A DNA stretch of 64,000 nt from a virus (Duplodnaviria; Caudoviricetes), in IMG/VR virus record IMGVR_UViG_3300021979_000004, positions 1 to 64,000 of that record. The stretch is one strand, 5' to 3'. The notes beneath the pieces were generated by a model. It was not told the origin of the DNA and ran no database searches. It was given only the letters and a program-made list of their open reading frames with translations. Made by a program: the position numbers and the translations under genes. Shown here one piece after another: positions 3,267 to 46,592 of the stretch. Position 1 is the first letter of the stretch. Every line of letters starts with the position of its first letter.

Positions 3267-3349
3267 TGGCACCCAAGGTAGGATTCGAACCTACGTTTTC
3301 AACTCCAACTACGCTTACTTGGTTCGTAGCCAAGCACGGTTACTTGGGT
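3267..3349 (-). tRNA. Atypical tRNA-Arg(ACG) lacking a D-arm
   Basis: Acceptor ACCCAAG/CTTGGGT+GCCA, anticodon arm CTTGG-CTACGAA-CCAAG, canonical T-arm; only 8 nt where the D-arm should be. Confidence 0.65.
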
Positions 3350-25026: not shown

Positions 25027-25323
25027 GCCGTAGTAGCTCAGTTGGTAGAGCAACTGACTTGAAGATACGAGCCTCAATTTGGAAACAATTTGAGTGGAAG
25101 GAATCAAATTCAGGGAAACCTTAACACGTAATGGTGATGGCAATCCTGAGCCAAGCCTAGAAGTTCTAGGAAGGTGCAGAGACTAGACGGTTCCTACCTA
25201 AGCATTCTTAAAAGGAATGTATGGTAAAGGTATAGTCCAGACCACAAATGTGAAGACAGTAGCGAAAGCTATAGTGGTAAGGTAATCAGTAGGTCGGGGG
25301 TTCAAATCCCTCCTGCGGCTCCA
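25027..25323 (+). tRNA. tRNA-Thr(TGT), intron-split: exon 1 25027-25060, exon 2 25282-25323
   Basis: Joined exons give ACTGA-CT-TGT-AA-TCAGT anticodon arm, GCCGTAG/CTGCGGC acceptor and CCA. Confidence 0.92.
25061..25281 (+). ncRNA. Group I self-splicing intron (IC3, trnL-UAA type), 221 nt, no ORF
   Basis: AATTCAGGGAAACC, GGCAATCCTGAGCCAAG, GGTGCAGAGACTAGACGG, ATAGTCC, CAGTAGCGAAAGCT; exon ends in U with U:G in P1 (CTT/GAG); intron ends in G. Confidence 0.92.
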
Positions 25324-26406: not shown

Positions 26407-26482
26407 TCCCTGATAGCTCAGCCGGTAGAGCAACGGACTGTTAATCCGTGTGTCGTTGGTTCGAACCCAACTCGGGGAGCCA
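26407..26482 (+). tRNA. tRNA-Asn(GTT), second copy
   Basis: Cloverleaf, loop CT-GTT-AA, CCA end. Confidence 0.95.
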
Positions 26483-26487
26483 AATTA

Positions 26488-26617
26488 TGTCTGTCTTTGA
26501 TGAGAAAACTCACTGAGTGATCATTAAGTTTGTTTTCTTTAAGTAAAGATACTTCTGTATGTGAATGTGCACAATAGCATCATAGAAGTAGCAGGTGAGA
26601 TTCCTGTACAGGCACCA
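26488..26617 (+). ncRNA. tRNA-like RNA with CCA end and a non-tRNA body
   Basis: TGTCTGT/ACAGGCA stem, GCAGG-TGAGATT-CCTGT arm, terminal CCA. Confidence 0.55.
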
Positions 26618-26632
26618 AACAAGTTAAGATAA

Positions 26633-26898
26633 ATTATATAGGAGGTTGGCTTAGAAGCAGCCATGGGTGTAATAAAGTAACTGAAAGAGCGTTGCAAAAA
26701 GCATCCTGCTAGTTTAAACTAGTACCTTTAAAGAGTGGGGCGAACTACCACATAGTGGGTAATGCGTAATAATGTCGGGCTTTTAAAGTGGCATATATAC
26801 GTGGTCTGCGGTGGGAAAATAGGGAACTAAGTCGGTACAATGCATAAATAAAATGTAACATGCTAACTCCCTTTTGGCGTAACAGCACACTATATAAT
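26633..26898 (+). ncRNA. 23S rRNA GTPase-associated-centre (L11/L10-binding domain) mimic RNA with two inserts
   Basis: AGGAGGTTGGCTTAGAAGCAGCCAT + CCTTTAAAGAGT + GCGTAACAGCACACT in rRNA order; closed by ATTATATAG/CTATATAAT 9-bp helix. Confidence 0.8.
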
Positions 26899-27030
26899 GA
26901 AGAAACGATGGGATATGGTCAGTTCCATTTGAGTTAACGTATAACATAGAACATAGTCTTCTGGTGTATCGGGAAGATACTTAATAGACGCAGATAGTTA
27001 TACGATCCAGATGACCACCAACAGTTTAAT

Positions 27031-27115
27031 GCGGGTGTGGTGGAATTGGTAGACACGTCTGGTTTAGGTCCAGATGCCGAAAGGCGTGGGGGTTCAAGTC
27101 CCTCTACCCGTACCA
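27031..27115 (+). tRNA. tRNA-Leu(TAG)
   Basis: Type II cloverleaf, loop TT-TAG-GT, CCA end. Confidence 0.95.
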
Positions 27116-36369: not shown

Positions 36370-37594
36370 ATAGCTTTGGTACTCGCTTGACCGTCCCGAT
36401 AGTAAGAGCAAAGGTCATAAATCATTGCCACCAAAGCTTTTTGCCCATAGGCTTACTCACCTATGTTACAGGCGCGGTAACCAATCCGAAGAGTAAGAGT
36501 TACGAGAGTATATAGGCATGGTCCTTTTTCATCATGTGAAATTCCTATCAAGTAAGGGTCATGACCTATATACTCTCAACGACCGATGGCACCCTTGGAC
36601 TAGCTCATCCATGTTACAGGTGCGGTATCCAGCCCGAAGAGCTACCGAATTTTCTAACCAAGGTTTGGCGTAATATGGCCTTGGTTCTAAAAACCACAAG
36701 TGTCTGTTTTTTCCTCCTTTGTCGGACACGCTACCAGTGGGTACAGGGGATAGAGGTTCACCCTGAAGTGGGTATACAGGACAAATATTTAGTTTCTGTC
36801 TCCGGTCCTGTATACCTAAACTTATTTGCCGAAAACCTGTAGACGGTTCTTTGCAGTTGTCCGTCAATAACCGCAGGGTAAGGGGTATTGTGGTTCACCC
36901 CAAATGTTTTGCCTAATGGGTTGTAAATAATATAATTACAATACATTAAGAAGTAGAGGTGAGGTTATGTATACAGGTCATTCCTGTGTGTAGGTTGAAC
37001 TCCTGCTAACCAACACCCTCTGCGACAAGTTTATAACCATGGGAATAAGACCTCTGCAAGCAAGTCCATCTGTGAAATCTCGTAGGAGAAGCGACGGTGA
37101 GGAACCTACGGAAGTGAGTAACATACATGGTTAAAGTTTTGTGCATATGGGTTTGAATTGTTTTTAAAACTTTAAATATCTAATCTAATTTCTCCATTAG
37201 GTTTCCATATGCACAATTTATTATGTACCTGACCGATCCTCTTGGTGCCCTCCGTCTCAGCATAACCAATGGTCAGGTACAGTTTTTATGCGTCGTAGGA
37301 CTGCCGGAATTGGACTACAGTCATCAATGGTCTTCTTCTGGGGTGTCTGAACGTTTATAGTGATTAGAGATAGATGACTCAATACTCAACTCATTATAAA
37401 CCTCCCTGTTCGACTCGGGGGCGACGAGCCAACTTCAAGTCGGGTAGCTCAGATGAATAGAGCGCGTCACTGATAAGGACGAGGCCGGTAGTCACTACCC
37501 CCGAATTAAAAAATTATGGTGCTGTTGCTTGCTGATCACAAGTAGGGAATATACTGATCTAGACAGGAGTGGGTTCGAATCCCATCCAGTGCCA
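36370..37594 (+). ncRNA. Array of structured non-coding RNAs (about 1.25 kb)
   Basis: Many 9-13-bp perfect helices, a duplicated motif and several T-loop arms; no credible ORF. Confidence 0.65.
37441..37505 (+). pseudogene. Degenerate tRNA-Ile(GAT)
   Basis: D-arm AGCTCAGATGAATAGAGC and loop CT-GAT-AA intact; T-arm lost. Confidence 0.5.
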
Positions 37595-44030: not shown

Positions 44031-46592
44031 ATGACTAGAAAGCAAAGATTGGTTGATAACTTATCTTATTTGGAAAATGATATATCTAATAAGAGCGAAG
44101 TTACAAGCCGTGATTATAAACCCTACTATCAATATAAAATTGGATTCCTTGACGAACAATTTGTTCCGGTCTATGGATATCTGAATTTTGGTTATTTGCC
44201 ACATTCAACAAAGTATTTTTTATTCAAGGACAATAAAGGTAGGGAAGTTATTCTCTACAAAGGGTCACAGGGCAAACCCGAAACTGATAGTTTCTTTAGA
44301 GCCTACCGGTATGATAAGAACGATGATTTCATTTATGATAACTCACCACTTAGCACACCTTTTATGTCATCCAATCAGCGCATCAACTACATTGATTGTT
44401 GTAGTACAAATTACATAGTTGCTCAAATTAAAACGTTGGGTGATCCCAACACATACAACTATTATCTTATTCGAACTAACTCAAGTTACGACACGTCTGA
44501 GTGGCAGAATGTTTTGGACATATCAAGTTCTATGGGGTTTAGTGCATCGGTTGCTAATAATATGACTATCGATGAAAAAGAACAAAAGCTTTATGTTATA
44601 GCATCAGAAAATGCGAGTGGTGGGTTAACAAGTTTTGGTACTATTAAATTAAAAATATATGACCTTACTAATGGGAACTTCATCAACGAATATTCTATAT
44701 TTGATATGCCAACTGACTTAAATTACAGCGCCTATCCTACATCAACTAAAGCGTTAAACTATGGTGGTCTTCGTGCAGTCTTTAATTACAATACGGGCGA
44801 TCTTTTAGTGAGCCTTAAAACCATTATCTATTATGATATAAACGGTGGACGAACTTATATTACCAAAGACATTAACCTTTCTTTAAATCTTAGCAATACC
44901 TTAAGACAAACTGGCACAGGAACCTATAGTTATTACATACCTATTAATTCAACTAACTATGACTTCTTTAACAATGGTATTGGTATTGGTTCTTGGAATA
45001 CTGGCGGTAGACATGATGCTTACTCTTTTAATGAGTATGACGACTCGATCTATTATATCGATAGATCAACTTGGATCGATACCGGTTTCAACTTGAGACA
45101 TCGTGATTTCAGTAGTCCACTAACAAGCTCTGGATACTTCTTAGATTCGTTGCCAGAAATTTACCCTACACAACGACATAACGTACCGGATTCCTCGCCT
45201 TGGTCAAAAACCTGTTATAGAAAATGTATAATGACCGATGATTACTATATTGGATATGGAAACAGTACGAAATATGGTGTTACTTATTTTATTTCAAAAT
45301 ATAATATAAACGGACAGGATATAGAATTTATAGCTGGTCAATGGAGAATACTGGATGATATAAATCCGAATGGTAATATTAATATAAAATCCTTGGATAG
45401 ATGGTTTATAACAAAAAATGGATCAACTGTAGAATACTACATATATGATAATTCACTTAATGTATTTAAAATAGATATAGATAGTAACTTTAATATAACA
45501 TATACTGATATGGGATTGCAGTTGCCCACTCCTAGCTCTTCATCCTATGGTAGGCAGAATCAATGGGCAATAGACTTTTCTAATAACAAAATATATTGGG
45601 TTGTATTAGACTATGCGGACTCTCATAAAGCTAAAATCATATGGACCGATAATAATGGATCAACATGGAACTTAGGACCAGTACTTAACAGTACACAAGC
45701 CAGTGGATCGGCTTCGCAATTTAGTGATGGGAATGCTAGGGTATATAACTCTGGTGGCTCTAACATGTTTATGGAAAACAATTTGGTTTATGTCAACATT
45801 ACATATCGAAGTGTTGGTGGCGCATACGGAACTCCATACGAACAATACGATAGTACTACCAATACACTGACTACATTCTCAAATTCAAATAATCCATATA
45901 ACGGTGGCAACTCAATAGGACATAATAGTCGAATAAATTATTATGTTAGTGACACAAATATTGGTTATTATTCTATGCGCTTCTATAGTCAATCGGTGCT
46001 TTCTAATTTATTAAATGGAAATTCATTGAGTACACTTTATACCAATGTATCTACGTCATCTGGACTAGGTGCAACTCTTTTAAACTTTCCAGTATTTCTA
46101 GATGGTTATTATTATCAAACACCTACTACTGATGTTGCATTGGAAGCGAACGCAGATAACTTTGTTTATCTTGAGACAGTAGATAATACTACATTGAATG
46201 CTTATGCTAGTGTAACGGATTTGAACAATACTACTGATCGTATTAAGATTGCAAAAATAACAACGGATGCAGCAAACCCAATATCACAAGAACTGTATGA
46301 TTTAAGTTTCAATGATACGACAGCACCGAAGTATATATTTAAAAAAATAAAACTAGAAAATGTTTCTCTTTCTCAAGGACAATCAATCACCGTACTATCA
46401 AGTGAATATGGGTTAAATGATTTTGATAGGTATCGAGTTATGGACTTCAGAAGTGATGGAACTGGTGACTATTTGTTAAATAGCAATGTAGAGTACAGTT
46501 TGAGTTTTGATAAAAGTCAGATAGTCATTACATCACAAGAGAGTGGAACACAAACATATACATTTTTAATACACGTATATTTGGGGATATAA
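44031..46592 (+). CDS. Large virion structural/tail-fibre-like protein (853 aa)
   Basis: N/S/T/Y/G-rich beta-type sequence; TAAATA upstream; shares N- and C-terminal modules with the next gene. Confidence 0.6.
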   Translation: MTRKQRLVDNLSYLENDISNKSEVTSRDYKPYYQYKIGFLDEQFVPVYGYLNFGYLPHSTKYFLFKDNKGREVILYKGSQGKPETDSFFRAYRYDKNDDFIYDNSPLSTPFMSSNQRINYIDCCSTNYIVAQIKTLGDPNTYNYYLIRTNSSYDTSEWQNVLDISSSMGFSASVANNMTIDEKEQKLYVIASENASGGLTSFGTIKLKIYDLTNGNFINEYSIFDMPTDLNYSAYPTSTKALNYGGLRAVFNYNTGDLLVSLKTIIYYDINGGRTYITKDINLSLNLSNTLRQTGTGTYSYYIPINSTNYDFFNNGIGIGSWNTGGRHDAYSFNEYDDSIYYIDRSTWIDTGFNLRHRDFSSPLTSSGYFLDSLPEIYPTQRHNVPDSSPWSKTCYRKCIMTDDYYIGYGNSTKYGVTYFISKYNINGQDIEFIAGQWRILDDINPNGNINIKSLDRWFITKNGSTVEYYIYDNSLNVFKIDIDSNFNITYTDMGLQLPTPSSSSYGRQNQWAIDFSNNKIYWVVLDYADSHKAKIIWTDNNGSTWNLGPVLNSTQASGSASQFSDGNARVYNSGGSNMFMENNLVYVNITYRSVGGAYGTPYEQYDSTTNTLTTFSNSNNPYNGGNSIGHNSRINYYVSDTNIGYYSMRFYSQSVLSNLLNGNSLSTLYTNVSTSSGLGATLLNFPVFLDGYYYQTPTTDVALEANADNFVYLETVDNTTLNAYASVTDLNNTTDRIKIAKITTDAANPISQELYDLSFNDTTAPKYIFKKIKLENVSLSQGQSITVLSSEYGLNDFDRYRVMDFRSDGTGDYLLNSNVEYSLSFDKSQIVITSQESGTQTYTFLIHVYLGI

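Follow-up and report, generated by a model that had tools for sequence, protein, structure and literature searches.

A phage-encoded RNA family resembling the GTPase-associated centre of 23S rRNA, with a member in the tRNA array of a large uncultured phage

Why would a phage carry, among its tRNA genes, a stretch of DNA that reads like a domain of bacterial 23S rRNA? The question is raised by a locus in a large uncultured phage, which we analysed within a window of 64 kb, i.e., the whole stretch of DNA under study, representing the first 64 kb of a 217,982-nt IMG/VR virus record with an estimated completeness of 73%. The locus lies inside a tRNA array and probably encodes a non-coding RNA of about 266 nt. 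An initial annotation made from the sequence had proposed that this RNA mimics the GTPase-associated centre of the large ribosomal subunit, to which L11 and L10 bind.

The element and its match to 23S rRNA

Every sequence statement of the initial annotation was checked, and the three rRNA-like segments, their coordinates and the perfect 9-bp closing helix are as it had described (Table 1). The joined segments comprise 52 nt, of which 46 are identical to positions 1054-1105 of E. coli 23S rRNA (rrlH from the annotated record was used as the reference), and they correspond to the GTPase-centre domain, as proposed. The closing helix, here called P1, has nine of nine base pairs in the window copy and consists of non-rRNA sequence that directly flanks residues 1056 and 1103. 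The H43 and H44 loops of the window copy are both canonical. Two inserts of 60 and 140 nt interrupt the domain between 1078 and 1079 and between 1090 and 1091, respectively, where the annotation had located them. A T at 26736 and an A at 26887 place A1101 opposite U1090 in this copy.

Table 1. Coordinates of the RNA element, its parts and the flanking tRNA genes in the window
Feature	Position	Strand	Sequence	E. coli 23S positions	Remarks
tRNA-Asn(GTT)	26407-26482	+			150 nt upstream of the mimic; ARAGORN, Rfam
Whole element	26633-26898	+			about 266 nt; putative gene for a non-coding RNA
P1, 5' strand	26633-26641	+	ATTATATAG	~1047-1055	closing helix, in the place of the top of H42
rRNA-like segment 1	26640-26664	+	AGGAGGTTGGCTTAGAAGCAGCCAT	1054-1078	24/25 identical
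G1056, A1057, H43 5' strand, loop and most of 3' strand	26642-26664	+	loop UUAGAAGCA	1056-1078	includes U1060 and A1067
Insert 1	26665-26724	+		between 1078 and 1079	60 nt
rRNA-like segment 2	26725-26736	+	CCTTTAAAGAGT	1079-1090	
H43 base, junction 1082-1086, H44 G1087/A1088/G1089/U1090	26725-26736	+	CCUUUAAAGAGU	1079-1090	
Insert 2	26737-26875	+		between 1090 and 1091	140 nt if extended to 26876 with the extra G
Extra G, then H44 3' part	26876-26889	+	loop GUAACA	G1091-A1103	extra G at 26876; A1095 = 26881; A1101 = 26887
rRNA-like segment 3	26877-26891	+	GCGTAACAGCACACT		
P1, 3' strand	26890-26898	+	CUAUAUAAU = CTATATAAT	~1104-1112	closing helix
tRNA-Leu(TAG)	27031-27115	+			132 nt downstream of the mimic; ARAGORN, Rfam

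When E. coli 16S and 23S rRNAs were compared with the whole record by blastn-short, the 25-mer at 26640-26664 was the best and clearest match (E 1.3e-4). The remaining rRNA matches in the record are exact words of at most 17 nt, the next best having an E value of 0.017. The initial annotation had suggested a search with the LSU rRNA model. Rfam 15, which includes this model, was run on the whole window with gathering thresholds and on positions 26480-27035 with E up to 10. No LSU, leader, intron or large-RNA family was found for the element, and there were only weak chance matches (pemK, dinG and others). The bacterial LSU rRNA model itself (RF02541), the segments of which are split here by 60 and 140 nt, gave no match either at the gathering score or at E up to 10. 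A blastn search of the region against the phage collection also revealed no match.

A family of phage RNAs with a conserved fold

An exact scan of IMG/VR using a 21-mer of H43 returned at least 39 loci, two of which are genuine 23S rRNA and 37 of which are non-rRNA phage loci. These 37 loci have an interrupted architecture like that of the window, with a closing helix that is different in each. A second IMG/VR scan using the family-specific 3' motif TTGGCGTARYAGCACA yielded at least 120 rows, and 62 distinct cores were extracted by anchoring on conserved motifs. We also built a covariance model, R1, from 14 compact members with the window excluded, and this model found full-length members in about 48 of 65 loci that had been missed by the regular expression. 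The family thus comprises at least 110 phage loci; because this number counts listed matches only, the true number is higher. A 15-mer scan of genome contigs gave mostly chance matches, and only four hits had the full architecture. These four are further members, located in bacterial draft genomes or metagenome-assembled genomes (MAGs), i.e., in a Clostridiaceae isolate, in MAGs of Ruminococcus and Pseudobdellovibrionaceae, and in one other.

R1 matches the window at 26632-26901 over model positions 1-168 of 168, with a score of 74 bits (E 7e-23); neither the window nor the rest of the genome contains another match. With the same model, scores of 45-57 bits were obtained for genuine 23S centres, E. 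coli 1046-1115 among them. Because R1 finds both groups, the family is homologous to the rRNA domain in both sequence and structure, and genuine rRNA, with its lower scores, is further from the family than the window copy is. Judged by these scores, the window element is a member of a large phage RNA family. The initial annotation knew of no described phage RNA of this kind. This statement stands as far as descriptions are concerned, since neither a full-text literature search nor Rfam 15 revealed a phage-encoded mimic of an rRNA domain, but the element is not unique. A survey of candidate structured RNAs in IMG/VR, which left out rRNA predictions, names nothing of the kind in its accessible part, and its unnamed supplementary candidates may include the family (PMC10690425).

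The annotation had suggested looking for covariation across homologs. The homologs keep the three segments and the closing helix, and at least 110 loci of common architecture show compensatory changes. When 65 members were aligned to R1, 96.8% of the cells were in standard pairs, compared with 76.1% in shuffled alignments (0 of 500 shuffles reached 96.8%), although an alignment fitted to R1 itself favours the structure. Changes on both sides were seen for 17 of the 20 pairs in this alignment; its covariation score was 0.555 vs 0.147, and slid controls were 29-55% paired. The motif-anchored counts are independent of R1 and agree with it. Across the family, P1 is 91.5% canonical, compared with 52.8% after shuffling, and all four pair types occur at each position. 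The pair 1058:1080 covaries (GC 32, UA 20, AU 7, CG 3) and is canonical in 62 of 62 members, and 1057:1081 changes from A-U to C-G in six members. The tertiary interactions are kept as well: pair 1082:1086 switches between U:A (34 members), C:G (21) and A:U (4), and U1060 occurs together with A1088 in all 62 members. The conserved fold, tertiary pairs included, is, on this comparative evidence, under selection.

The RNAalifold prediction from a plain MAFFT alignment recovered P1, H43 and the helix that closes the insert, with compensatory changes in 14 of 20 pairs. It also suggested an alternative register of H44, with the U of the linker opposite A1103 and its G opposite C1102. The sequences are compatible with both registers; since G1087 would lose its place in the alternative one, the match to the rRNA fold may be inexact. 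The single-sequence fold of the whole element is not better than that of shuffled sequences (z = -0.62), and insert 2 alone has z = +0.68. Since these folding energies are unremarkable, the structure rests on the comparison between members, and on that basis a free-standing phage copy of the fold formed by the end of H42, H43 and H44 is strongly supported.

The family also differs from genuine rRNA in a set of constant features. The A1101 facing U1090, which the annotation had noted as the single deviation from the rRNA, proved to be a family hallmark: U1090-A1101 is present in 62 of 62 anchored members, and among the members found through H43 alone, A1101 and U1090 are each present in 22 of 22. 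A UUU linker occurs in 59 and an extra G in 60 of the 62 anchored members, and each occurs in 20 of 22 members of the H43-only set. As these 3' features are present in the H43-only set, they were not imposed by the search pattern. E. coli 23S rRNA has A1090-U1101, the other sampled 23S rRNAs have U1090 opposite U1101, and all 19 have U1101. None of these 19 distinct genuine 23S rRNAs, which are mostly from one phylum, has U1090-A1101, an insert at 1090/1091, a UUU linker or the extra G.

The loop of H43 is more variable in the family. Among 66 members identified solely by the 3' motif, position 1067 is A in 54 (82%) and G in 10, being replaced in 12 in total; position 1068 is G in 46 (70%) and A in 20; and position 1070 is A in 56 (85%) and G in 10. 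U1060, U1066, C1072 and A1088 do not vary in these 66 members. By comparison, positions 1067-1073 are invariant in the 19 distinct genuine 23S rRNAs, mostly of one phylum. The H44 loop and A1095 are kept in all H43-only members. Because loop positions vary while fold positions are fixed, the partner of the RNA seems to read the fold and not the A1067 cleft. The constraint that factors, tRNA and thiopeptides impose on the loop seems to be relaxed in the family, with the fold being kept. A thiopeptide or another ligand that requires A1067 fits these patterns less well than a partner that reads the fold, for example the uL11 C-terminal domain. The candidate recognition elements of the uL11 C-terminal domain, i.e., the minor groove of the 1067 stem and U1060-A1088, are present in the window and invariant in the family. 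In the two cases where the host 23S rRNA could be read, the mimic has the same state as the host at 1058:1080, an observation that is anecdotal with n = 2.

Insert 1 of the window consists of two hairpins, GGGUGU...GCAUCC (26665-26706) and UGCUAGU-UUAA-ACUAGUA (26707-26724), with a folding energy of -15.1 kcal/mol (z = -2.4), and is handled as an insertion by R1. A hairpin insert of 20-91 nt is found at 1078/1079 in 12 of the 62 anchored members, including the window copy. At the same site, 6 of the 19 distinct genuine 23S rRNAs have one extra nucleotide, suggesting that the site is a natural bulge. A search for relatives that share insert 1 of the window, using the pattern TTAGAAGCAGCCATGGG, returned only two loci (L013 and L016), and their hairpins are unrelated.

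An insert at 1090/1091 is present in all 62 anchored members, with a length of 26-366 nt, and is opened by a short helix. In the motif-anchored counts, the closing helix of this insert is 91% canonical across the family, compared with 51% after shuffling; in the window it pairs GGGG at 26737-26740 with CCC(U) at 26869-26872. The insert ends in a U-run linker (26872-26875) followed by G26876. Inside insert 2 of the window are a hairpin, AUGUC (26772-26776)/GGCAU (26790-26794), and the motif GUGGGAAAAU (26811-26820), both of which are common to the window and its insert relatives, and the hairpin arms become GUUGC/GCAAC in L070. The local scores between insert 2 and the inserts of L235, L188/L070, L250 and L176 range from 58 to 41, and the four highest, at 58-49, lie above the maximum of 45 reached by shuffled sequences. 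To judge from these resemblances, insert 2 of the window is not random. Across the whole family, insert 2 differs among subfamilies; the constant part is the core, which is presumably the functional part. In the family and rRNA comparisons, both interruptions are at sites that tolerate insertion. A comparison of the inserts with E. coli 16S and 23S rRNAs revealed no recurrent second rRNA segment.

Two further observations concern the inserts of other members. A module, CACCCCG-NAA-CGGUAAGG, recurs toward the 3' end of insert 2, where about 13 of 58 members have it (e.g., L070, L010, L015, L039, L179 and L246); GGUAAGG was seen 13 times in the family inserts against 0.7 expected, and the window lacks the module. 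In L008:3683-4074 (-) (IMGVR_UViG_3300007354_000004), insert 2 carries AGUACGGGAGGAAA, a close copy of the sarcin-ricin loop.

Genomic setting

The annotation had described a free-standing RNA in tRNA surroundings and without flanking rRNA, which is what we found: tRNA-Asn and tRNA-Leu lie on either side of the element, on the (+) strand. Similar settings recur in the family, with 33 of 65 members lying within 300 nt of a tRNA gene and always on the same strand. The upstream tRNA is at most 30 nt away in 14 members, and many members are flanked on both sides within 10 nt. This tight flanking fits co-transcription with the tRNA genes and release by tRNA-processing enzymes. A promoter or terminator belonging to the element itself could not be convincingly found in the window, where promoter-like sites numbered 9 vs 7.1 expected and terminator-like sites numbered 0.

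No neighbouring protein is conserved across the family, the largest cluster covering five loci, and no L10, L11, L12, MazG or RelA/SpoT genes were found in the 73%-complete record. A host partner is suggested by the lack of a conserved neighbour protein and, in the record, of genes for L10, L11 and L12. The five-locus cluster consists of a conserved protein of 95-99 aa (e.g., L070:1323-1607 (-), L176:5864-6148 (+) and L205:824-1120 (+)). Its gene follows the mimic after 30 nt in L070, L176 and L188 and after 0.5-1.2 kb in L205 and L271, and no homologue of the protein was found in the genome of the window.

The spaces between the mimic and its two tRNA neighbours are themselves structured to some degree. 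The 150 nt from tRNA-Asn to the mimic (26483-26632, (+)) have a three-armed tRNA-like fold (-36.9 kcal/mol, z = -2.2) with a T-arm-like hairpin, CAGG-UGAGAUU-CCUG, and the 3' end ...CAGGCACCA, and received no ARAGORN call. The 132 nt from the mimic to tRNA-Leu (26899-27030, (+)) have a moderate fold (z = -1.6) with ...GACCACCA near the 3' end, and may be a second CCA-ended small RNA. All 18 ARAGORN tRNAs of the 218-kb record lie within its first 44 kb; two additional Rfam tRNA matches, at 3270-3349 (-) and 37438-37507 (+), scored 41.5 and 32.5 bits, respectively, and have no ARAGORN call. A group I intron (RF00028, 65.3 bits) is located 1.4 kb upstream of the mimic, at 25051-25254 (+), between small ORFs. 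No Pfam family was found for six nearby ORFs, and the largest ORF (853 aa, 44031-46592 (+)) had no Pfam family and, by tblastn, no match among 50,697 phage records. Relative to cultured phages, this one appears to be remote.

Possible partners of the RNA and comparison with known systems

As the best explanation, which we give a probability of roughly 55%, we propose that the locus encodes a stable RNA of about 266 nt, a free-standing copy of the GTPase centre, that would bind a host factor off the ribosome. Transcription probably covers the neighbouring tRNA genes as well, and the RNA would be excised from the common transcript. It would fold into a closing helix that replaces H42, followed by H43, the 1082-1086 junction and H44, together with two extra domains. 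Off the ribosome, it may bind a host factor that normally recognises the rRNA of the GTPase centre, and we infer that uL11 is the likeliest partner, possibly together with uL10-(bL12)n. The effect would be an altered stalk-base composition of host ribosomes, or altered signals that depend on it, e.g., the uL11-dependent activation of RelA. Binding of uL11, and perhaps of uL10/bL12 too, would be the most likely activity of the RNA, with a decoy for a toxin as the main rival.

Several points weigh against parts of this proposal. Insert 1 enters the 3' strand of H43 near the minor-groove site of the uL11 C-terminal domain, with which it may clash. P1 is a plain helix without the kink-turn of H42, so uL10 may not bind. 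Titration as such is also questionable, as the free uL11 pool is small and what a phage would gain by removing uL11 is doubtful. A more ambitious version of the proposal, in which many large phages make an abundant, tRNA-like-processed replica of the stalk base that captures uL11, perhaps with uL10-bL12, and reprogrammes ribosomes or silences the stringent response, should be taken as tentative, i.e., as a possibility more than an expectation.

The RNA could instead serve as a decoy or sponge for an agent that attacks the GTPase centre, such as a Tre23-type ADP-ribosyltransferase, a defence nuclease or thiopeptides, and so spare the host ribosomes. The mimic sits in tRNA arrays, where phages are known to carry spare or decoy RNAs that counter RNA-targeting defences. 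Natural agents that target the GTPase centre do exist: Tre23, an Rhs toxin of Photorhabdus, ADP-ribosylates H44 at 1095-1098 and blocks the GTPase activity of EF-G, and thiostrepton, nosiheptide and micrococcin bind H43/H44 (PMC8661411). In line with a decoy role, all H43-only members keep the H44 loop and A1095. However, we found no anti-phage defence known to target the GTPase centre, Tre23 being an interbacterial toxin, and a stoichiometric RNA would counter a catalytic toxin poorly unless it were very abundant. The replacement of A1067 in 12 of 66 members further argues against thiopeptide capture as the general role of the family. We consider a decoy function unlikely.

Another rival reading is that the RNA engages EF-G, the EF-Tu ternary complex, IF2, RF3, RelA or the tRNA elbow, which touches A1067 on the ribosome, and tunes translation or GTPase use, alone or in a small particle with uL11 and uL10-bL12. 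The H43 and H44 loops, which form the factor-facing cleft, are canonical in the window copy, and the sarcin-ricin-like loop of L008 suggests that some phages imitate the whole factor-docking site. However, a sarcin-ricin-like motif (AGUACGGGAGGAA) is found in only 1 of the 62 anchored members, L008, and is absent from the window. Moreover, the positions that contact factors or tRNA (1067, 1068 and 1070) are those that vary in the family. Isolated GTPase-centre RNA also binds factors poorly when the rest of the ribosome is missing, which counts against factor binding. We regard this reading as improbable.

That the element is a non-functional remnant, either decayed host 23S rRNA that was once captured or an assembly chimera with rRNA reads, is hardly credible: the core is near-identical to bacterial 23S rRNA, but no other clear rRNA-like sequence occurs in the 218 kb, P1 is not rRNA sequence, the window copy scores above genuine rRNA on R1, and at least 110 phage loci share its architecture with compensatory changes and non-rRNA hallmarks, so that the comparative data contradict both forms of this reading. 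An rplJ- or rplK-like cis-acting leader that feeds back on ribosomal protein genes deserves just as little credence, because, although mRNA leaders that imitate rRNA sites are well established, no ribosomal protein gene was found downstream or elsewhere in the record, tRNA genes flank the element here and in half of the family, and no Rfam leader matched; the genomic context contradicts it.

The proposed uL11-binding RNA can be compared with several known systems. It is like the 23S GTPase centre (E. coli 1051-1108, which as a 58-nt fragment binds uL11 and thiostrepton) in its helices, its H43 and H44 loops, U1060-A1088 and the covarying pair 1082:1086. Unlike that centre, it is free-standing with its own closing helix, lies outside domain II and is encoded by a phage among tRNA genes; it also has U1090-A1101, the insert at 1090/1091 and the UUU-G linker, and the window copy has the insert at 1078/1079 in addition. 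The mRNA leaders of ribosomal proteins, e.g., the L10 leader (RF00557), likewise reproduce a protein-binding site of the rRNA off the ribosome. These leaders, however, act in cis upstream of the genes they regulate and have a partial likeness to rRNA, whereas the mimic is a near-exact copy of a whole domain located in tRNA arrays.

Phage genomes are known to encode tRNAs, tmRNAs, ribosomal proteins and translation factors. The mimic resembles phage tRNAs and decoy RNAs in its same-strand position in a tRNA array, its size, which is that of a stable RNA, and its likely maturation by tRNA processing. In contrast to them, it imitates a piece of rRNA and not a tRNA, and no system that attacks it is known. 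GOLLD and ROOL are structured non-coding RNAs of phages and prophages that often lie beside tRNA genes. The mimic is much smaller than these, has a core that is recognisably derived from rRNA, and gave no Rfam match to either.

A phage gene for a free-standing copy of an rRNA functional centre is not described in the searchable literature. Its relatives are widespread, their structure is clearly under selection, and the RNA is small enough for direct tests; together the members form a natural set of insertion and point variants of a tertiary RNA fold that is among the best studied. Should the RNA sequester a ribosomal protein, or take up an attack aimed at the ribosome, it would add a new route by which phages control host translation. 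If capture of uL11 proves true, the family would constitute an unrecognised class of viral anti-host RNA that acts by imitating a piece of rRNA.
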